From positions 156,531-220,530 of the forward strand of contig CANLQO010000004.1 in NCBI GenBank assembly GCA_947493335.1: a stretch of DNA of 64,000 nt. Direction: 5' to 3'. The stretch is from an uncultured Rhodobacteraceae bacterium (GTDB lineage Bacteria; Pseudomonadota; Alphaproteobacteria; Rhodobacterales; Rhodobacteraceae). Positions 15,299 through 62,382 of the stretch are shown here, one piece after another. The position numbers and the translations under genes were made by a program. The notes below the pieces were generated by a model. The model was given only the letters and a program-made list of their open reading frames with translations, was not told the origin of the DNA and made no database searches. Positions within the stretch are counted from its first letter, which is position 1. Each line of letters starts with the position of its first letter.

Positions 15299-15425
15299 GT
15301 TCCTTTTGGCAATCGGCAGTTCGGCGCAAGATTCCGCCGCTGTTGGCGCTCACGCCGCATAATCAAAGCTGAGACATTGCGCAAGACTGCGCAGATATTA
15401 GCGCCAGTCGGTGAGGAGACAGACC

Positions 15426-16544
15426 ATGCATATCGGATGCCCCAAAGAGATCAAACCACAAGAATTTCGCGTCGGCATGACGCCCAACGCCGCCAGAGAG
15501 GCCGTGGCGCACGGACATACCGTCACGATCGAGGCCGGTGCCGGGGTTGGCGCAGGTTTCACCGATGCCGACTATACCGACGCCGGTGCCAAGCTGGCAG
15601 AGACGGCGGCAGAGGTTTTTGCCACCGCTGACATGATCGTGAAGGTGAAAGAGCCGCAAGCGGTCGAGCGCAAGATGCTGCGCGAGGGACAGATCCTGTT
15701 TACCTATCTGCATCTGGCGCCGGACCCCGAGCAAACGAAGGACTTGCTGGCCTCTGGTGCAACTTGCATCGCCTATGAGACGGTGACCGACGACCGGGGC
15801 GGACTACCCCTGCTTGCGCCGATGTCGGAAGTTGCCGGTCGTCTGGCCCCGCAAGTCGGGGCCTGGACCCTGCAAAAGGCCAATGGCGGGCGCGGCGTGC
15901 TGATGGGGGGTGTGCCCGGTGTTGGGCCGGCCCGTGTCGTCGTGATCGGTGGCGGCGTGGTCGGCACCCATGCAGCCAAGATCGCCGCCGGAATGGGCGC
16001 GGATGTGACGGTGTTGGACCGGTCACTGCCCCGGTTGAGATACCTTGACGATGTCTTTGGCGGACAATTCAAGACATCCTACGCAAGCGCGGGCAATACG
16101 GTCGAGCTGGCCGCAGAGGCGGACATGATCATCGGTGCTGTGCTGATCCCCGGTGCCGCGGCGCCCAAGCTGATCAGCCGGGCGCAACTGGCTAATCTCA
16201 AGCCCGGTGCGGCACTGGTGGACGTGGCGATTGATCAGGGCGGTTGCTTTGAGACTTCGCGTGCCACAACGCACCAGGACCCGATCTACGACGTGGATGG
16301 GATCATGCATTATTGCGTGGCGAATATGCCGGGTGCGGTGGCGCGCACCTCGACCATCGCGCTTGGCAATGCGACGATGCCCTTCATGCTGGCATTGGCG
16401 GACAAGGGTTGGCGGCAGGCCTGCGCGGATGATCCACATCTATTGAACGGATTGAACGTCCATGCCGGGCAGCTGACCTATTACGCCGTCGGCAAGGCGC
16501 TGGGGATCGACGTTCTGGCGCCCAGCCTTGCCTTGAAAAACTAA
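15426..16544 (+). CDS. ald: Alanine dehydrogenase
   Basis: Start trimmed to ATG 15426 (MHIGCPKEIKPQEFRVGMTP). VIGGGVVGTHAAKIA NAD fold. Confidence 0.95.
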   Translation: MHIGCPKEIKPQEFRVGMTPNAAREAVAHGHTVTIEAGAGVGAGFTDADYTDAGAKLAETAAEVFATADMIVKVKEPQAVERKMLREGQILFTYLHLAPDPEQTKDLLASGATCIAYETVTDDRGGLPLLAPMSEVAGRLAPQVGAWTLQKANGGRGVLMGGVPGVGPARVVVIGGGVVGTHAAKIAAGMGADVTVLDRSLPRLRYLDDVFGGQFKTSYASAGNTVELAAEADMIIGAVLIPGAAAPKLISRAQLANLKPGAALVDVAIDQGGCFETSRATTHQDPIYDVDGIMHYCVANMPGAVARTSTIALGNATMPFMLALADKGWRQACADDPHLLNGLNVHAGQLTYYAVGKALGIDVLAPSLALKN

Positions 16545-16555
16545 AGCCAAAGCAA

Positions 16556-16594
16556 AGACGCCGCGCGGTCCTTACCCGCGCGGCGTCTCTTTTT
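16556..16594 (+). terminator. Rho-independent terminator of ald
   Basis: 13-bp stem AGACGCCGCGCGG / CCGCGCGGCGTCT, 7-nt loop, then CTTTTT. Confidence 0.85.
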
Positions 16595-16629
16595 GATATC
16601 AACGGCTTACAACTTTTTTGGCTTTTCAG

Positions 16630-16654
16630 GGAACCCAAGGCAAAGTGCTGCGTT
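16630..16654 (+). promoter_or_regulatory. EcfG-type (general stress sigma) promoter motif, orphan, pointing into the phyR 3' end
   Basis: GGAAC (16630-16634), 16-nt spacer, CGTT (16651-16654). No + strand CDS lies downstream. Confidence 0.55.
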
Positions 16655-16660
16655 TTGTCC

Positions 16661-16726
16661 GTTCAAAGGCGCCTGTCCCCGTGCCTCGTCGATCGGCAAC
16701 GCGCCTTCCCTGACACGCGCGTTGCC
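16661..16726 (+). ncRNA. Candidate EcfG-dependent small RNA with C-rich hairpin loops (GsrN-like); ends not defined
   Basis: Downstream of the 16630 motif there is a 4-bp hairpin with loop GCCUGUCCCCGU. A 10-bp hairpin GGCAACGCGC/GCGCGUUGCC (16695-16726) follows, with loop CUUCCCUGACAC. No canonical U-tail is visible. Confidence 0.35.
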
Positions 16727-16742
16727 GGTCGCAACCCCTGCG

Positions 16743-17561
16743 TCAGGCAAGCAGCGTCTCGGTCGAGGCAAAGAACATCGCCTGACCCACAGCAGAGCGG
16801 ACCTGCTCTTCGGCATAGGGTTTTGTGATCAAGAAGGCCGGTTCGGGCTTGGCACCCGTCAGCAGGCGCTCCGGGAAGGCGGTTATGAAGATCACCGGAC
16901 GTTCGCCCAGTTCCATCAACAGATCATTGACCGCATCAATGCCCGAAGATTTGTCGGCCAATTGAATATCCGCGAGGATCAAATCCGGCTGAGCCGCCTG
17001 TGCCAGCTTGACCGCGCCGTCGCGGGTGCGCGCGACGCCCGTGACCTCATGGCCCATTTCCGTGACGATGGATTGCAAGTCCATGGCGATGATCGGCTCA
17101 TCCTCGATAATCAGGATCCGGCCTGCCACGCTGGCGGCCATCTCAAGATGGGCGATGTCGATCAGAGCGGACACCTCTGACGCGGATTGCCCCATGATCT
17201 GGGCGATCTCTTGTGTGCTGAAGCCTTCAACCGTGCTCAGAAGCAGCGCCTCGCGGGTGTCCGGGGTCAGTTTGGCCAGATGAGCCTGCGCGGCAGCTTC
17301 GATCCCGCTGGGCGCAAGGCCGGCACTAATGGGCGCGCTTGTGGTCCAGATTGCATGCATCGCCTGAAACAGCGCCACCTTGGGCGGCAGATCGGTGCGA
17401 AAGCTGTCGCGATCGGCTAGGATCATTTCCAGCGTCGCGACCGCATAAGTGTCGCCGCTGCTTTGCGATCCTGTCAGCGCACGCGCATAGCGGCGCAGGT
17501 AAGGTAAATGAGCCGCAACCGCGGAGGAAATGTCGGCCTGTAGTGTCGATGTCATCATCAA
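16743..17561 (-). CDS. phyR: PhyR anti-anti-sigma factor (sigma-like N-domain + receiver domain)
   Basis: 272-aa ORF. The N-terminal ECF-sigma-like region (LPYLRRYARALTG, LLLSTVEGFSTQEIAQIMG) is fused to a C-terminal receiver (ILIIEDEPIIAMDL...ILADIQL). It is divergent from nepR-ecfG. Confidence 0.9.
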   Translation of the reverse strand: MMMTSTLQADISSAVAAHLPYLRRYARALTGSQSSGDTYAVATLEMILADRDSFRTDLPPKVALFQAMHAIWTTSAPISAGLAPSGIEAAAQAHLAKLTPDTREALLLSTVEGFSTQEIAQIMGQSASEVSALIDIAHLEMAASVAGRILIIEDEPIIAMDLQSIVTEMGHEVTGVARTRDGAVKLAQAAQPDLILADIQLADKSSGIDAVNDLLMELGERPVIFITAFPERLLTGAKPEPAFLITKPYAEEQVRSAVGQAMFFASTETLLA

Positions 17562-17587: not shown

Positions 17588-17612
17588 GGAACTCAACCCC
17601 TCATGAGGCGTT
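17588..17612 (+). promoter_or_regulatory. EcfG-type promoter of nepR-ecfG
   Basis: GGAAC (17588-17592), 16-nt spacer, CGTT (17609-17612), about 48 nt upstream of the nepR ATG. Confidence 0.6.
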
Positions 17613-17619
17613 TAGTTCC
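17595..17619 (-). promoter_or_regulatory. EcfG-type promoter of phyR (face-to-face with the nepR promoter)
   Basis: On the minus strand: GGAAC (rc of 17615-17619), 16-nt spacer, GGTT (rc of 17595-17598). It is part of a 32-nt near-palindrome. Confidence 0.45.
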
Positions 17620-17659: not shown

Positions 17660-17824
17660 ATGTCGAACACCGAACCCAGCAAAAAGGTCAAGGAATTGAT
17701 CGACGCCAACCTGCGCCGGGTTTTTTCGGAAGCAGAGAGTGAAGAACTGCCCGACCGGTTCCGGGTGTTGCTGGATCAGTTGAAAGAGACCCCGCCGCCG
17801 CAGGACGACGGATCAGAACAATGA
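17660..17824 (+). CDS. nepR: NepR anti-sigma factor
   Basis: Start trimmed to ATG 17660. The 54-aa product MSNTEPSKKVKELIDANLRRVFSEAESEELPDRFRVLLDQL matches the NepR pattern. Its stop overlaps the ecfG start (ATGA). Confidence 0.8.
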   Translation: MSNTEPSKKVKELIDANLRRVFSEAESEELPDRFRVLLDQLKETPPPQDDGSEQ

Positions 17825-18381
17825 CCGCAGCATTGCCCCCTGAGGAGGAGCTGGTCAGCCATCTGCCTGCCCTGCGGGCCTTTGCCATCAGCCTGACCCG
17901 CAACAAAAGCACGGCCGACGACATGGTGCAGGACACGATCGTCAAGGCCTGGACAAACATTCAGAAGTTCAAACCGGGCACGAATATGCGTGCCTGGTTG
18001 TTCACCATTCTGCGCAACAACTTTTATTCAGAGCGGCGAAAGATGCGGCGCGAAGTGGCCGACATCGACGGAGAGATCACAGCGTCACTGGCGGAAAAGC
18101 CCGCGCACGACGGTCGGTTGCAATTGCAGGACTTCAAACGGGCGTTTGACACCTTGCCGGTGGAGCAGCGCGAGACGCTTATTCTGGTCGGCGCATCGGG
18201 GTTTTCCTACGAAGAGGCAGCCGAAATGTGCGGCGTGGCCATCGGCACGATCAAAAGTCGTGCCAACCGGGGTCGCAAGCGGTTGAGTGAGTTGATGCAC
18301 ATTGGCGAAGATGGCCCTGTTGAATTAACGGACCGGCCGACCATGGCCGTTGTGGCCAGCAACAGCGGCAAATCCTTCTGA
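17821..18381 (+). CDS. ecfG: ECF sigma factor EcfG (general stress response)
   Basis: 186-aa ORF. Sigma-70 region 2 (DMVQDTIVKAWTN) and region 4 (LILVGASGFSYEEAAEMCGVAIGTIKSRANRGRKRL). It sits in a phyR/nepR context. Confidence 0.9.
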   Translation: MTAALPPEEELVSHLPALRAFAISLTRNKSTADDMVQDTIVKAWTNIQKFKPGTNMRAWLFTILRNNFYSERRKMRREVADIDGEITASLAEKPAHDGRLQLQDFKRAFDTLPVEQRETLILVGASGFSYEEAAEMCGVAIGTIKSRANRGRKRLSELMHIGEDGPVELTDRPTMAVVASNSGKSF

Positions 18382-20096
18382 TGACACAAACGCGCACGGG
18401 ATGGGATTTGCCTGTGCGGGTTATGGTGTTGCTGACTTTGGCACTGTTGCCGCTGGGATATCTGGGTGTGATCCAGACGGGGGTCCTTGCCGAAACGTCC
18501 GAGGTCCGGCTGCGCCTGTCCCTGATCGCCGCAACAGAGGCGGTGACACAGGGCGAAACCCAAATGCTGGAACGTGCCTTGGGCGCTGCAGAGTCCCTGT
18601 CGGGACCGGCCGGACAGCTGGCGGATGACCCCGCAACATGTTCGGCGGCCATGATCCGGTTTTTACGCCATCACCCGACCTATAGCTTTGCCGGTTTTTT
18701 GGAGATCAGCGGGCGGATGCGCTGTGGCACGGTCAGCGAAGATCTTGATTTCTCGCTTGATCCGGGGCTGGCGTCTTTGCAGGCCGCACCTGTCGTCGCG
18801 ATCAGGCCCGAGCCGAATTCTATCGTCGATCAGAGCCCGGTCGCGATGGTATTTGCGCCAGTGCACGGCGCCGACGACACCCTGATCGGCCATATTGTCC
18901 TGTCGATCCCTGCCAAGACCTTGGCCGGGAGCCGCGACATGGAGAATGCGCAGGCCCCGCTTGGCATGGCGATATACACGCGAGAGGGGCGCATTTTGCA
19001 GGTGCAGGGACGCGCGCCAGATATTGGCGCTTTGCAAAGTCTGGGCGACCTCTGGGCACTGGAGGCCGCGGCGACACAGGATGTGATCGACGGCGACGGC
19101 GTGCACCGGATTGCTGTGGTTCTACCGATGATCCCCGGACAGGTGCACGCAGTAGCCTTGTGGCCACGAGCAGAGGCAGAGCCAACATTGCTGGGCTTTG
19201 CGCTGCCTGCGCGCCTGTTTCCGGTGTTGATGTGGTTGGCCAGTCTGGCGGTGGCCTATCTGGCGATCCATCGTCTGGTGGTGCGGCACATCCAGCGGCT
19301 GGACGGCCAGATGGCCCAATTCGGCCGCCATCGTAAAATTTTCAAACCACAGGATGACCCGGCAATCCCCGCTGAAATCCGCGCGCTGGAGGCAACGTTT
19401 CAGGGCATGGCGCTGGATCTGATCAGCGAAGAAGCCCGGATGGAGGATGCGCTGCGGGAAAAGAACATCCTGATCAAAGAGGTCCATCATCGGGTCAAGA
19501 ATAATCTTCAACTGATCTCGTCCATCATGAACCTGCAGTTGCGGGACATCGAAAACCCCGAGACACGGACGATCCTGCGGCGGTTGCAGGACAGAGTGCG
19601 GGGATTGGCGACGGTCTACGGCTATCTCTATCAGACCGACCGGGTTGAGCGGACAAGTGCGGCGCAGCTTCTGGAGGACGTTTTCGGGCAAGTGCTTGAC
19701 CCGGACACGCTGCCGAAGATCGGCATCGAGATCGAACAGCATTTTGATGACGCTGCGCTGACCGCAGATCAGGCCGTGCCTCTGGCGCTGCTGGCCAGCG
19801 AATTGGCGGCCAATGCGCTGACAACCGTTTTGACCGCCCCGGATGAGGCGCACCGGATCGCGCTGCGGTTTGAGCATCTTCCGGGACGACGCGCGCGGCT
19901 CGCGTGTCGCAACTCATTGCCCCGTTCCGCCTCGGATCAGCCCCCTGAAGGCGAGGGCGGGCTTGGCAGCAAACTGGTGCAGGCCTTTGCCCAACAGTTG
20001 AATGCCACACCACACACCGACATTCAGGACGGGCAATTCAACGTGACAATCACCTTTGATTTGCAGGATTTCGAATTCGAAGACCGGAGCTATTGA
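18381..20096 (+). CDS. HisKA_2-type sensor histidine kinase (PhyK-like GSR kinase)
   Basis: ATG overlaps the ecfG stop (TGATG). Two TM segments flank a periplasmic domain of about 250 aa. H-box EVHHRVKNNLQLISSIMNLQ is typical of HisKA_2/HWE kinases. Confidence 0.8.
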   Translation: MTQTRTGWDLPVRVMVLLTLALLPLGYLGVIQTGVLAETSEVRLRLSLIAATEAVTQGETQMLERALGAAESLSGPAGQLADDPATCSAAMIRFLRHHPTYSFAGFLEISGRMRCGTVSEDLDFSLDPGLASLQAAPVVAIRPEPNSIVDQSPVAMVFAPVHGADDTLIGHIVLSIPAKTLAGSRDMENAQAPLGMAIYTREGRILQVQGRAPDIGALQSLGDLWALEAAATQDVIDGDGVHRIAVVLPMIPGQVHAVALWPRAEAEPTLLGFALPARLFPVLMWLASLAVAYLAIHRLVVRHIQRLDGQMAQFGRHRKIFKPQDDPAIPAEIRALEATFQGMALDLISEEARMEDALREKNILIKEVHHRVKNNLQLISSIMNLQLRDIENPETRTILRRLQDRVRGLATVYGYLYQTDRVERTSAAQLLEDVFGQVLDPDTLPKIGIEIEQHFDDAALTADQAVPLALLASELAANALTTVLTAPDEAHRIALRFEHLPGRRARLACRNSLPRSASDQPPEGEGGLGSKLVQAFAQQLNATPHTDIQDGQFNVTITFDLQDFEFEDRSY

Positions 20097-33047: not shown

Positions 33048-34271
33048 CTATTCAGTTCCCGATTGATACCAGGCGGCCAATACCCGGCGATCCTCTGCGG
33101 GCAGATTGGTGATATTGGCAGGCGGCATCGCATGGCTGACGGCCGCATGCAGGTAGATCTCACGCGCACGGCCCGCGACATCCGCGCGGGTCTCAAGAAA
33201 CACGCCCTTGGGCGCCCATTGCATGTTGCCCCAGACCGGCGCGCGTGCGTGGCACATGCTGCAACGGCCCCGCACAATATCATGGGCCTGCTCAAACCCT
33301 TCGGCTTGGGCAAAGCGTTCCTCATATGCGGTCAGGGCGCGGGCTTCGGACGCCTCATAGCTTTCGTGCCCCGGATAGGTCGACAGCCAGGCAATCGAGA
33401 TGAATAACAACACGGTCAGCGCCCAGGTCCAGTGCGGCTGCCCCTGCCGGGCGTGCATGGAATTGAAATAATGCCGGATCGTGACCCCCATCAGAAAGAC
33501 AAGTGCTGCGATAATCCAGGCATACTGCGTGCCAAACGCCAATGGATAGTGGTTCGACAGCATCAGGAAGATCACCGGCAAAGTGAGATAGTTGTTATGC
33601 GTCGACCGCAGTTTGGCAATCTTGCCGTACTTGGGATCAGGCGTGCGCCCGGCCTGCAGGTCGGCCACCACGACGCGCTGGTTCGGCATGATGATAAGGA
33701 ACACGTTCGCCGTCATGATCGTTGCGGTAAAGGCCCCAAGGTGCAGCAGTGCCGCACGGCCCGTGAAGATCTGATTATAGCCCCAGGACATCACAACCAG
33801 CACCACAAACAAAAGCACCATCAGCGTTGTCGGTGTTTCGCCCAACGGCGATTTGCAAAGCGCGTCGTAAATGACCCAGCCAACCGCAAGTGAGGCCGCC
33901 GAAATCGCGATGCCTTGCCAGATCGCCAGATCGGCCTTTGCCGGATCGATCAGATAAAGCTCTGCCCCGACCCAATAGACCACCGCCAGCATCGCAAAGC
34001 CCGACAGCCAGGTTGCGTAGCTTTCCCATTTGAACCAGGTCAGATGCGCTGGCATCTCTTCGGGCGCGACAAGGTATTTCTGGATATGATAAAAACCGCC
34101 GCCATGAACCTGCCATTCCTCGCCGTCTGCGGGGCCCTTGATGTCTCGGTTCAGCCCCAGATCCAGCGCGATAAAGTAGAACGATGACCCGATCCAGGCG
34201 ATGGCCGTAATGACATGGAGCCAACGCACCGCAAAAGCGATCCAGTCCCACAGAATGGCGACGTCATACAT
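33048..34271 (-). CDS. puuD: Urate hydroxylase PuuD (membrane protein with C-terminal cytochrome c domain)
   Basis: Start ATG 34271 (MYDVAILWDWIAFAVRWLHVITAIAWIGSSFYFIALD). Multi-TM body. C-terminal CSMCHA haem-binding motif. Confidence 0.85.
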   Translation of the reverse strand: MYDVAILWDWIAFAVRWLHVITAIAWIGSSFYFIALDLGLNRDIKGPADGEEWQVHGGGFYHIQKYLVAPEEMPAHLTWFKWESYATWLSGFAMLAVVYWVGAELYLIDPAKADLAIWQGIAISAASLAVGWVIYDALCKSPLGETPTTLMVLLFVVLVVMSWGYNQIFTGRAALLHLGAFTATIMTANVFLIIMPNQRVVVADLQAGRTPDPKYGKIAKLRSTHNNYLTLPVIFLMLSNHYPLAFGTQYAWIIAALVFLMGVTIRHYFNSMHARQGQPHWTWALTVLLFISIAWLSTYPGHESYEASEARALTAYEERFAQAEGFEQAHDIVRGRCSMCHARAPVWGNMQWAPKGVFLETRADVAGRAREIYLHAAVSHAMPPANITNLPAEDRRVLAAWYQSGTE

Positions 34272-34332
34272 TTTGGGTTCCCTTTCCCCATGGCTTGGCC
34301 CCATAAATTCACCACAAGCAAGGGAAGTCCAG

Positions 34333-60336: not shown

Positions 60337-61410
60337 TCATAGCAAATGGCCCGACTTCGCGGCCTTGGTCGCCAGATAGGCCTGATTGTGGGCGTTCCCA
60401 CCCACCAAAAGCGGCACGCGTTCCACCACAGTAATCCCGCAGCCTTCCATGCGTGTGATCTTGGCGGGATTGTTGGTCATCAACCTTACGGCGCCAAATC
60501 CCATCTTGCGTAAAATCTCGGCTCCAATCCGAAAATCGCGCTCATCATCCTCAAACCCCAACCGATGGTTCGCTTCCACCGTATCAAAACCTTGATCCTG
60601 AAGCGCATAGGCCCGCATCTTGTTGGTCAGACCGATCCCCCGCCCCTCTTGATTGAGATAAAGCAGCACACCCGCCCCTTCCGCTCCCATCTGCGCCAGC
60701 GCACCGTTCAATTGCGGCCCGCAATCACATTTCAAAGACCCGAGCAGATCGCCGGTGAAACAGGCCGAATGCAGTCTGGCCAGCACCGGTTTTGACCGGT
60801 CAGGCTGGCCAATCTCGACGGCGTAATGCTCTTCCCCGCCATCCTCGGGCCGGAAGATGTGCAACCGGCCCGCGTCCGACACCCGCAATGGGACCCGTGC
60901 GGAAACCACCGCATCCAGCGCTGCCATTGTGGTGTCCATCACAGCCCCGGCCTCAACCACCGTCAGCGCATGCTCTGCGGCAAATCCAGCGGGGTCCGAC
61001 AAGGGTGCAATGACGGCCGCAGGCAACAGGCGTGCTGCCTTGCAAAGCGTGATGCCCGCCCGCGCCAACTCTGCGTCACCTTCGCGCAACGACACCAAGG
61101 GGCCCTTCATCGGATTGGCAAGATCGTCCGCTGGGTCCGCAAGCGCCTGCACCCAGCCCAACCTTGCCTCAACGGGCAAGGCGATCCTTGCCACATCACC
61201 GTCATAGGCCCGGGCCTTCAGCGTCGCCGCGCGCCAATCGGTGATCGCCAGCGCCGCGCCGCCCAGCGCCAGCACATCCGTCAGCCGAGCGGCGCTAAGC
61301 GTCTCGGCCGCCAGCACCAAACCCTGTCCGGCCACCACAACCGGCACACCCATGCGCAGATCTGCCCGCGCGCGGGCCAGCCGTTCTGTTACATCGGGGG
61401 CGAATGTCAT
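60337..61410 (-). CDS. ribA: GTP cyclohydrolase II with a degenerate DHBP-synthase-like N-domain
   Basis: Start trimmed to ATG 61410. The C-half has RLHSACFTGDLLGSLKCDCGPQL and YLNQEGRGIGL (RibA). The N-half is RibB-like but lacks the acidic catalytic motif. Confidence 0.85.
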   Translation of the reverse strand: MTFAPDVTERLARARADLRMGVPVVVAGQGLVLAAETLSAARLTDVLALGGAALAITDWRAATLKARAYDGDVARIALPVEARLGWVQALADPADDLANPMKGPLVSLREGDAELARAGITLCKAARLLPAAVIAPLSDPAGFAAEHALTVVEAGAVMDTTMAALDAVVSARVPLRVSDAGRLHIFRPEDGGEEHYAVEIGQPDRSKPVLARLHSACFTGDLLGSLKCDCGPQLNGALAQMGAEGAGVLLYLNQEGRGIGLTNKMRAYALQDQGFDTVEANHRLGFEDDERDFRIGAEILRKMGFGAVRLMTNNPAKITRMEGCGITVVERVPLLVGGNAHNQAYLATKAAKSGHLL

Positions 61411-61480
61411 GGGTTTGCGCTGCCTTTCTGCGACATCACGTAGCGATCTTCGTGAGGAATTGAAACATTTGCCCGTCAAA

Positions 61481-61496
61481 TCACACGTCCGTGTGA
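61481..61496. promoter_or_regulatory. Palindrome in the ribA / response-regulator divergent region (possible operator)
   Basis: TCACACG tc CGTGTGA, 7-bp arms. Confidence 0.25.
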
Positions 61497-61567
61497 AATA
61501 TTTGCAGCACAACTTGCCAGCGCCGTGTCTGCATCACACTTCTAATCGCAAGACACCACAGGAGGCC

Positions 61568-62257
61568 ATGATGGCACAACTCAAGAAAATTCTGCTCGTC
61601 GATGATGACGAGGACCTGCGCGAGGCGCTGGGTGAACAGCTCTTGATGACTGAGGATTTCGACGTTTTCGAGGCAGGCGATGGCTCTGAGGCGATGACCA
61701 AGGCTAAGGAACAGCTTTACGATCTGATGATTTTGGACGTGGGCCTGCCCGACACCGATGGGCGCGAGCTTTGCCGCCTGATGCGCAAGCAGGGCGTCAA
61801 ATGCCCGATCGTGATGCTGACGGCGCAGGATTCGGATGCCGACACCATCTATGGACTTGATGCCGGGGCAAACGATTACGTCTCTAAGCCCTTCAAATTC
61901 CCCGTTCTTCTGGCCCGCATCCGCAGCCAACTGCGCACGCATGAGCAGTCAGAAGATGCCGTATTCCAGCTTGGGCCCTACACCTTCAAGCCCGCCCAGA
62001 AGATGCTGGTGACCGAAGAAGACAAAAAGGTTCGCCTGACCGAAAAAGAGACGAATATCCTCAAATTCCTCTACCGCGCCACCGAAGGTGTGGTGGCCCG
62101 CGACGTGCTTTTGCACGAGGTTTGGGGCTACAATGCCGGTGTCACAACCCACACACTTGAGACACACATTTACCGTCTTCGGCAGAAAATAGAACCAGAT
62201 CCGTCAAATGCCCGCCTTCTTGTGACCGAATCCGGCGGTTACCGTCTGGTGGCATAG
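61568..62257 (+). CDS. OmpR/PhoB family response regulator
   Basis: Start ATG 61568 or 61571 after CAGGAGG. Receiver ILLVDDDEDL...LMILDVGLPDTDG and a winged-helix output domain (LTEKETNILKFLY...THIYRLRQKIE). Confidence 0.9.
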   Translation: MMAQLKKILLVDDDEDLREALGEQLLMTEDFDVFEAGDGSEAMTKAKEQLYDLMILDVGLPDTDGRELCRLMRKQGVKCPIVMLTAQDSDADTIYGLDAGANDYVSKPFKFPVLLARIRSQLRTHEQSEDAVFQLGPYTFKPAQKMLVTEEDKKVRLTEKETNILKFLYRATEGVVARDVLLHEVWGYNAGVTTHTLETHIYRLRQKIEPDPSNARLLVTESGGYRLVA

Positions 62258-62266
62258 TGTGAGATT

Positions 62267-62382
62267 CCAGCGCGCGGAACATCCTCCCATGTTCGCGCGT
62301 TGGATACGTAGCCCCCGACAGAGGGTCAAATCTGTCAACCTCCCTGTTGGACTGGCCCGAGCCTCGTGCTCGGGCTTTTTTT
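62267..62382 (+). ncRNA. Candidate small RNA: two hairpins with CCUCCC loops plus an intrinsic terminator (cuckoo/CcsR-like architecture)
   Basis: Hairpin 1 is CGCGCGGAACAT [CCTCCC] ATGTTCGCGCG (62271-62299). Hairpin 2 is GTCAAC [CTCCCT] GTTGGAC (62334-62352). The terminator is GCCCGAGC ctcgt GCTCGGGC plus T7 (62355-62382). No CDS covers the interval. Confidence 0.45.

Follow-up and report, generated by a model that had tools for sequence, protein, structure and literature searches.

A predicted EcfG-driven small RNA gene with two C-rich loops, convergent with phyR, as a candidate counterpart of GsrN in Rhodobacterales

In Caulobacter crescentus, the small RNA (sRNA) GsrN is transcribed from a SigT-dependent promoter and pairs through a C-rich 5' loop with G-rich leaders, for example that of katG (PMC5869019). 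Experiments have shown that GsrN is stabilised by Hfq, is processed to a 5' isoform and activates katG via its C-rich loop, and the 5' part of the RNA is sufficient for function without the terminator (PMC5869019). The present analysis concerns a possible counterpart of this RNA in a 64,000-nucleotide (nt) stretch of DNA from an uncultured Rhodobacteraceae bacterium (GenBank assembly GCA_947493335.1, contig CANLQO010000004.1, positions 156,531 to 220,530), hereafter the window, in which an original prediction had placed a GsrN-like stress sRNA reading antisense into the 3' end of phyR. The underlying observation, an EcfG-type promoter motif followed by two hairpins with C-rich loops, is confirmed as real, and the reading that was given to it finds support in sequence, in conservation and in structure, the sequence-based checks suggested along with it having all turned out as expected. 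Positions 16630-16742 of the + strand very probably constitute a genuine EcfG-promoter-driven gene for a structured RNA.

The statement in the original prediction that gsrN homologues often sit near ecfG-nepR-phyR has a published basis, as has the C-rich loop. Homologues of gsrN are typically found beside this locus with an exposed C-rich 5' loop, and outside the Caulobacteraceae GsrN-like RNAs form an operational class recognised by an upstream EcfG site, by lying close to the locus and by a C-rich 5' loop that is exposed, in a survey that included no Rhodobacterales (PMC5869019). The stress-induced sRNAs described in this order include CcsR1-4 and SorX of Rhodobacter sphaeroides. The C-rich loops of the CcsR RNAs are thought to pair with ribosome-binding regions. 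CcsR1-4 and SorX depend on RpoHI/RpoHII and are derived from 3' untranslated regions (UTRs) by RNase E cleavage, SorX being cut from the 3' UTR of ompR-1 (PMC8625941). No description of an EcfG-dependent sRNA in Rhodobacterales was found in the literature.

The predicted promoter of the window element is an exact match to GGAAC-N16/17-CGTT, as had been claimed, with the -35 GGAAC at 16630-16634 and the -10 CGTT at 16651-16654 of the + strand separated by a 16-nt spacer. The sequence also bears out the position given for it, in the convergent gap past the ald terminator and pointing at the 3' end of phyR, as well as the presence of a like motif ahead of nepR (GGAAC-N16-CGTT, 17588-17612, +). 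The phyR promoter, on the - strand, consists of GGAAC at 17619-17615, 16 nt and GGTT at 17598-17595, and overlaps that of nepR. These two motif matches are internal positive controls for the motif and lend support to the assignment of the element as EcfG-driven. Together (17588-17619) they form overlapping, divergent and nearly palindromic EcfG motifs, GGAACTCAACCCCTCATGAGGCGTT on the + strand and GGAACTAAACGCCTCATGAGGGGTT on the - strand, a layout also present in many related loci. Over the 64 kb, GGAAC-N16/17-CGTT occurs four times where 1.26 matches are expected, a count that 4 of 100 shuffles attain; this excess is on its own only suggestive, and what lifts the promoter of the RNA element above chance is the conservation of its motif in relatives. 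Another of the four matches, GGAAC-N17-CGTT at 33698-33723 (+), lies antisense within an open reading frame (ORF) for a 418-aa membrane protein (33048-34304, -) and is probably a chance match.

Conservation was assessed on orthologous phyR 3' flanks of six lineages: the window and five related ones obtained by protein search and contig look-ups, L081, L082/L083, L084/L085, L086 (Yoonia sp. R2331) and L087/L088, whose PhyR proteins are 81%, 74%, 72%, 70% and 68% identical to that of the window, respectively. The promoter and RNA block is convergent with phyR in all five other lineages, and because it is retained in L082/L083 even though ald has been lost there, the block travels with phyR. Identity is unevenly distributed along the flank. 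It is 29% in the 60 nt upstream of the -35 and again 29% in the promoter spacer, 100% in the -35 GGAAC, invariant in 6/6 lineages, 87% in the -10 (C/G)GTT, in which only the first base varies, between C and G, and 90% in hairpin 1. The GGTT variant found in relatives is the form used by the phyR promoter of the window. The alignment of related gaps that had been suggested as a check hence returned both promoter elements in five further lineages and no conservation of the spacer between them.

This pattern bears on the notion that the motif is a chance match or a relic, the leftover promoter of a lost stress gene (a putative DUF1328-like peptide or dps) that is functionless now. Such genes do stand under a convergent EcfG motif downstream of phyR in related genera, and the window-wide motif excess is modest, as given above. 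However, promoter and RNA are conserved between lineages in which PhyR itself is just 68-81% identical and the DNA on either side is randomised, compensatory changes occur in the stem, and no trace of a coding sequence for the peptide or dps is found, which makes a functionless remnant extremely improbable.

The predicted transcript folds into two hairpins. In Caulobacter, position 1 of gsrN lies 9 nt past CGTT, to judge from the coordinates of the gene block and probe given in Suppl. file 1 of PMC5869019, and in 6/6 of our lineages the distance from the -10 to the AAGG of hairpin 1 is fixed at 11 nt; on the basis of this spacing and this fixed gap, the likely transcription start is placed at 16661-16665 (+), 7-11 nt past the -10. 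Hairpin 1 (16666-16687, +) has a stem of 6-7 bp (16666/7-16672 with 16681-16686/7), whose core, 16667-16672/16681-16686, includes one G·U pair, and an 8-nt loop, CUGUCCCC, at 16673-16680; the small hairpin of the original prediction is thus present, although it had been drawn with a 5-bp stem and a 12-nt loop and is better described in the present form. Its loop, a candidate seed, lies 12 nt from the predicted start and is predicted to be exposed. Hairpin 2 (16690-16731, +) had been given as a 10-bp hairpin at 16695-16726; it is real and has the 12-nt loop (CUUCCCUGACAC, 16705-16716), but its stem extends to 15 bp (16690-16704/16717-16731). Both loops are C-rich, that of hairpin 2 by virtue of CUUCCC. 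The 78-nt RNA has a folding energy of -37.6 kcal/mol (z = -5.7), and 0/200 shuffles fold equally well. The match of covariance model R1 spans 16661-16745 and scores 85.2 bits.

Comparative evidence points to the same structure. From the six distinct sequences RNAalifold predicts exactly these two hairpins, and in their 22 pairs 97.7% of cells are paired, compared with 88.3 +/- 1.5 for shuffles and 29-47% for slid partners. Compensatory double changes affect 9 pairs, against 3.4 +/- 1.4 in shuffles, and 0/500 shuffles reach any observed measure. These changes are concentrated in hairpin 2, where they involve 9/15 pairs and where 98.9% of cells are paired. Its loop keeps UCCC in all lineages while stems and loop lengths vary, and the hairpin 1 loop is kept as CUGUCCCC except in one lineage, which has CUGUCCGC. 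The expectation that loops would be kept and stems would covary was consequently realised for both C-rich loops and for the long stem. A coding reading of the block was considered and rejected, because the conserved part has no start codon and the loops of relatives differ in length by non-multiples of three, which leaves no reading frame conserved. In agreement with the original prediction, no protein-coding gene lies on the + strand here; the listed + strand ORFs are antisense to phyR and none is conserved.

Since hairpin 2 begins 11 nt past the phyR stop codon, the conserved block might instead act on the phyR-sense strand, as a 3' UTR, terminator or stabilising stem-loop, the GGAAC/CGTT motif being incidental. 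A perfect stem can be folded on either strand, and the hairpin 2 part of R1 weakly scores the opposite strand (19.6 bits). The strands are told apart by their pairs. On the + strand, 129/132 cells are paired, with 15 G·U pairs and 1 A·C across the alignment, whereas on the phyR-sense strand the 15 G·U pairs become C·A mismatches and 115/132 cells are paired. Because only the strand antisense to phyR accommodates the G·U pairs, the fold is assigned to that strand, and the hairpin is not merely a phyR 3' stem-loop, an outcome that would have spoken against the original proposal. In addition, when 161 nt of the phyR-sense strand are folded, the energy does not surpass that of shuffles (z = -0.71), and invariant -35 and -10 elements around an unconserved spacer would be left unexplained. 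We therefore consider a function on the phyR-sense strand very unlikely. As an intrinsic terminator of phyR in particular the element was rejected, as on that strand the GC-rich hairpin lacks a U-tract: the - strand sequence past the hairpin is GAUCGACGAGG, and the terminator scan finds just the ald hairpin.

The surroundings of the element determine how its transcript could relate to phyR. Upstream lies ald (15411-16544, +), encoding an alanine dehydrogenase (Pfam AlaDh), followed by an intrinsic terminator hairpin with a T-tract (16556-16588) that is terminator-like when read on either strand and is the only terminator-like site that the scan finds downstream of phyR. The phyR gene (16743-17561, -; Pfam PhyR_sigma2, PhyR_sigma-like and Response_reg) is convergent with the RNA element, its stop codon TCA at 16743-16745 lying 11 nt past hairpin 2 and 88 nt past the -10. 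On its other side are nepR (17660-17824, +; Pfam NepR), ecfG (17821-18381, +; Pfam ECF sigma factor with PhyR_sigma2-like region 2) and a gene for an HWE/HisKA_2 kinase (18381-20096, +; Pfam). The genes from 17660 to 20096 are the core locus of the general stress response, and nepR-ecfG lies about 1 kb from the RNA element. Between hairpin 2 and phyR there is only the C-rich 3' tail CAACCCCUGCG (16732-16742, +). Sequence inspection and the terminator scan found no U-tract past hairpin 2 on either strand.

This tight arrangement is what gives weight to the idea that the element is mainly a cis-antisense regulator, in which the EcfG-driven transcript reads into phyR or pairs with the phyR 3' UTR and the hairpins merely stabilise its 5' end. 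RNase III cleavage or transcriptional interference would then tune the phyR messenger RNA and so feed back on the anti-anti-sigma factor. No terminator occupies the gap between hairpin 2 and phyR, the arrangement is equally tight in L081, L082, L084 and L086, and overlap of the transcript with phyR is likely in the five lineages that lack an intervening terminator. Moreover, with the only terminator-like site downstream of phyR situated beyond the RNA gene, the phyR 3' UTR would be fully complementary to the RNA. A different picture is offered by L087/L088, in which a bidirectional terminator separates the RNA from phyR, so that the RNA would not overlap the phyR messenger in that lineage, and both hairpins are nonetheless conserved together with their loops. 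The RNA of L087/L088 extends further, first as a C-rich single-stranded stretch and then as a third hairpin, up to a canonical intrinsic terminator that it shares with phyR (z = -9.2), and because this RNA has its own canonical terminator on this strand, the family is probably an independent transcription unit. A perfectly complementary pair would also have no need of near-invariant loops. Finally, convergent EcfG promoters at this position in other Rhodobacterales drive stress genes (a 56-aa membrane protein, Dps), so convergence with phyR requires no antisense rationale. On balance, a mainly cis-acting antisense RNA seems rather unlikely, and the cis effect on phyR that had been thought conceivable is possible in this clade but does not extend to the whole family, given the L087/L088 terminator.

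Compared with GsrN (CCNA_R0081; sequence from Suppl. file 1 of PMC5869019), the window RNA shares the GGAAC-N16-CGTT promoter, a size of about 100 nt, a C-rich 5'-proximal loop and proximity to the locus. The traits by which the class is recognised are present: an exact promoter match lies directly upstream, where the class allows a near-consensus EcfG site of GGAAC, 15-17 nt and CGTT, the RNA stays linked to phyR even in the lineage without ald, and the 5' loop CUGUCCCC, together with the UCCC loop on a covarying stem, is predicted to be exposed. The architecture is different: GsrN has a long 5' stem around the C-rich loop and a small hairpin, against two simple hairpins in the window RNA, whose loops carry UGUCCCC or UCCC in place of the CCCCCC of GsrN. 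Unlike GsrN, the window RNA abuts phyR convergently and has no intrinsic terminator of its own in this genome; such a terminator, which counts among the GsrN-like traits, is present in canonical form only in the L087/L088 homologue. In Smith-Waterman comparisons with Caulobacter GsrN, the window RNA and 4/5 relatives score within the shuffle range (a fraction of 0.16-0.65 of shuffles do as well or better); only L081 stands higher, at 22 where shuffles average 14.8, a score that 0.012 of them reach and that loses significance once six comparisons are allowed for. The gsrN locus gives no match to an nhmmer profile built from alignment A2. Rfam 15, for which the presence of a GsrN model was not established, gives no match at the element, either in the window scan or for 16600-16760 at E <= 10, and scans of the six related loci find nothing at the element. 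The label GsrN-like therefore stands as an analogy based on operational traits and not as a statement of sequence similarity or Rfam membership. Similarly, the promoter termed orphan does lack a + strand coding sequence, but it is not strictly orphan since it would drive a conserved gene. On this evidence, the predicted RNA is a new family within a known kind and not a member of the GsrN sequence family.

Other described or predicted sRNAs are more distant. The GsrN-like RNAs predicted in Rhizobiaceae and Bradyrhizobiaceae (Fig. 9, PMC5869019) answer to the same operational traits, in another order and with unrelated sequences. Some of them are supported by transcriptomes; the window family, for its part, has covariation support, and none is reported for those predictions. 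As to CcsR and SorX, the RNA at 16661-16745 matches no Rfam family. A SorX homologue is present elsewhere in the window (Rfam match at 62310-62381, +; 65.5 bits, gathering score 46.6), downstream of an ORF for an OmpR-type regulator (61241-62257), the same arrangement as in R. sphaeroides. Because a GGAAC-N17-CGTT motif at 62276-62301 (+), another of the four matches in the window, ends 8 nt ahead of its start, SorX may have its own EcfG-type promoter in this organism.

The account that we favour, and hold to be reasonably probable, is that the element encodes an EcfG-dependent sRNA of about 70-85 nt that acts in trans via its C-rich loops. RNA polymerase carrying sigma-EcfG would initiate near 16661-16665 from GGAAC-N16-CGTT, and the nascent RNA would fold at once into the two hairpins, each exposing a C-rich loop. 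The most likely role of these loops would be to base-pair in trans with messenger RNAs of the stress regulon, at G-rich stretches resembling Shine-Dalgarno sequences, as the GsrN loop does. As there is no U-tract terminator past hairpin 2 in this genome, the primary transcript is proposed to run on, probably antisense into phyR, until it is ended by Rho or by collision, and trimming back to the stable hairpin 2 would yield the mature species of about 70-85 nt. Such antisense read-through is plausible but secondary, and where the transcript overlaps the 3' region of phyR there may be an additional cis effect particular to the lineage. The promoter footprint, the RNA fold, its strand and the lack of coding potential are observed; transcription, EcfG dependence, the 3' end, the trans mechanism and the targets are inferred.

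Several points weigh against this account. The alignment holds just six distinct and related sequences. All compensatory pairs fall in hairpin 2; hairpin 1 is without covariation, with a single stem substitution among lineages that yields a U·G pair, and because its stem is almost invariant its fold draws its support from energy and G·U pairs. An intrinsic terminator after hairpin 2 is missing here and in 4/5 other lineages. Other extracytoplasmic function sigma factors could in principle read a GGAAC/CGTT promoter. With respect to targets, RNAduplex searches of three accessible segments against the 64-kb window returned only GC-driven background and self-complementarity, GGGGACA-type sites in the six syntenic loci were confined to the RNA's own complement, and neither katG nor any other target could be assigned within the 64 kb.

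The predicted family is narrow. A species-representative genome scan with PhyR yielded 80 loci of up to 66% identity (<=66%), and beside phyR in these loci R1 gave no convincing match, the best being 18 bits (E = 0.064) in Alsobacter L064. The R1 match is also absent in L089-L092, Loktanella DSM 29012 (L111), L112 and L113, in which PhyR is 65-69% identical and the neighbourhood is different, and none of the fetched loci outside the close clade has ald next to phyR. In two metagenome scans the invariant 22-mer had 0 matches, and a promoter-plus-hairpin-1 pattern had 18, about the estimated chance number, none of which fits R1. No match to the element was found among PLSDB plasmids by blastn.

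EcfG-type motifs are nevertheless common at the phyR 3' flank in the 80-locus scan, and other EcfG-motif sRNA-like units with C-rich 5' loops lie near phyR in further clades, which supports the interpretation of the window element as an EcfG-dependent sRNA. Three metagenome-assembled genomes of Rhodobacterales share an EcfG-motif unit without an ORF about 2 kb downstream of phyR (L012 5810(-), L014 5873(-) and L015 5845(-)), in which the loop of the 5' hairpin is conserved as GAUGUCCCUC(C/U)C and a T-tract hairpin comes within about 150 nt. In Roseicyclus salinarum (L024 184-330, +), GGAAC-N16-GGTT is followed by a 117-nt sRNA-like unit (-55.5 kcal/mol, z = -6.3) composed of a 5' hairpin with loop UCUUGUCCCUC, a second hairpin, single-stranded CUCCCCCUG and an intrinsic terminator. 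A Pseudorhodobacter sp. (L045 3984-3800, -) has, like the window, an EcfG motif convergent with phyR and then about 160 nt without an ORF, in which the first hairpin contains GCCUGUCC, the second loop is UCCCUC, and UUUCCCCCC and a terminator follow; this unit, to which R1 gives no match, may be a distant relative of the window RNA. In Alsobacter spp. (L051 4961(-), L064 5031(-) and L074 4968(-)), a conserved EcfG-motif unit of about 95 nt is found about 1.2 kb from phyR, with several further EcfG motifs around it, a strong terminator and a 5' hairpin loop, (A/U)GCCCCCUCUU, that resembles the GsrN loop ACGCCCCCCGAC.

Protein genes are found in comparable positions. In Roseovarius, Rhodovulum, Pseudooceanicola and related loci (L001, L002, L003, L010, L018, L019 and L020, - strand), a convergent EcfG motif downstream of phyR leads to a conserved small membrane peptide, of 56 aa in most (MLYWAL...GRAP) and 69 aa in L003, with a terminator shared with phyR, and in L023 and L029 a Dps-like gene takes its position. 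Elsewhere among the Rhodobacterales, and in sphingomonads, co-directional EcfG motifs drive small proteins that are membrane-bound or secreted; in L040, L044, L075 and other sphingomonad loci the motif lies about 45 nt past the phyR stop (+), preceding a 43-51 aa peptide with a hydrophobic C-terminal segment in L040, L044 and L075 and leading directly into a larger ORF in L052.

A bolder view, to which we give little credence at present, is that Rhodobacterales loci hold a fast-evolving superfamily of EcfG-driven sRNAs, with a UGUCCC-type seed carried on unrelated scaffolds, and that in the Yoonia-like clade the terminator was lost and the RNA became fused to the phyR 3' end, a single EcfG-dependent transcript acting in trans on the regulon and in cis as antisense to the phyR messenger. 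Its candidate members would be the window family, the L012/L014/L015 unit, the Roseicyclus unit and perhaps that of Pseudorhodobacter. Enrichment of UGUCCC past EcfG motifs in Rhodobacterales loci, 11/170 downstream against 5 upstream and not de-duplicated, is too weak to be claimed. If this view is true, the transcript would feed back post-transcriptionally on the master anti-anti-sigma factor and so complete a loop.

To our knowledge, the PhyR-NepR-EcfG general stress response has hardly been studied in Rhodobacterales, the order of the abundant marine Roseobacter group, and we know of post-transcriptional control by an EcfG-dependent sRNA as an established fact only for Caulobacter GsrN. 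According to a 2018 paper, the role of PhyR had been analysed in no member of the order before that work (PMC5830050). The RNA described here is a predicted, unannotated counterpart of GsrN in marine Rhodobacterales: a covariation-supported candidate sRNA gene whose promoter is defined and whose two loops are candidate seeds, which also occurs in Yoonia, a genus with cultured members, and which is a candidate for a new Rfam family. Comparative support for it is unusually good; it would carry a predicted principle over to an order of ecological importance, and its convergence with phyR adds a testable twist. It raises the questions of whether a GsrN-type RNA layer is general across the alphaproteobacterial stress response, which messenger RNAs such a layer would control in marine bacteria, and whether its convergent placement against phyR would feed back on the switch itself.

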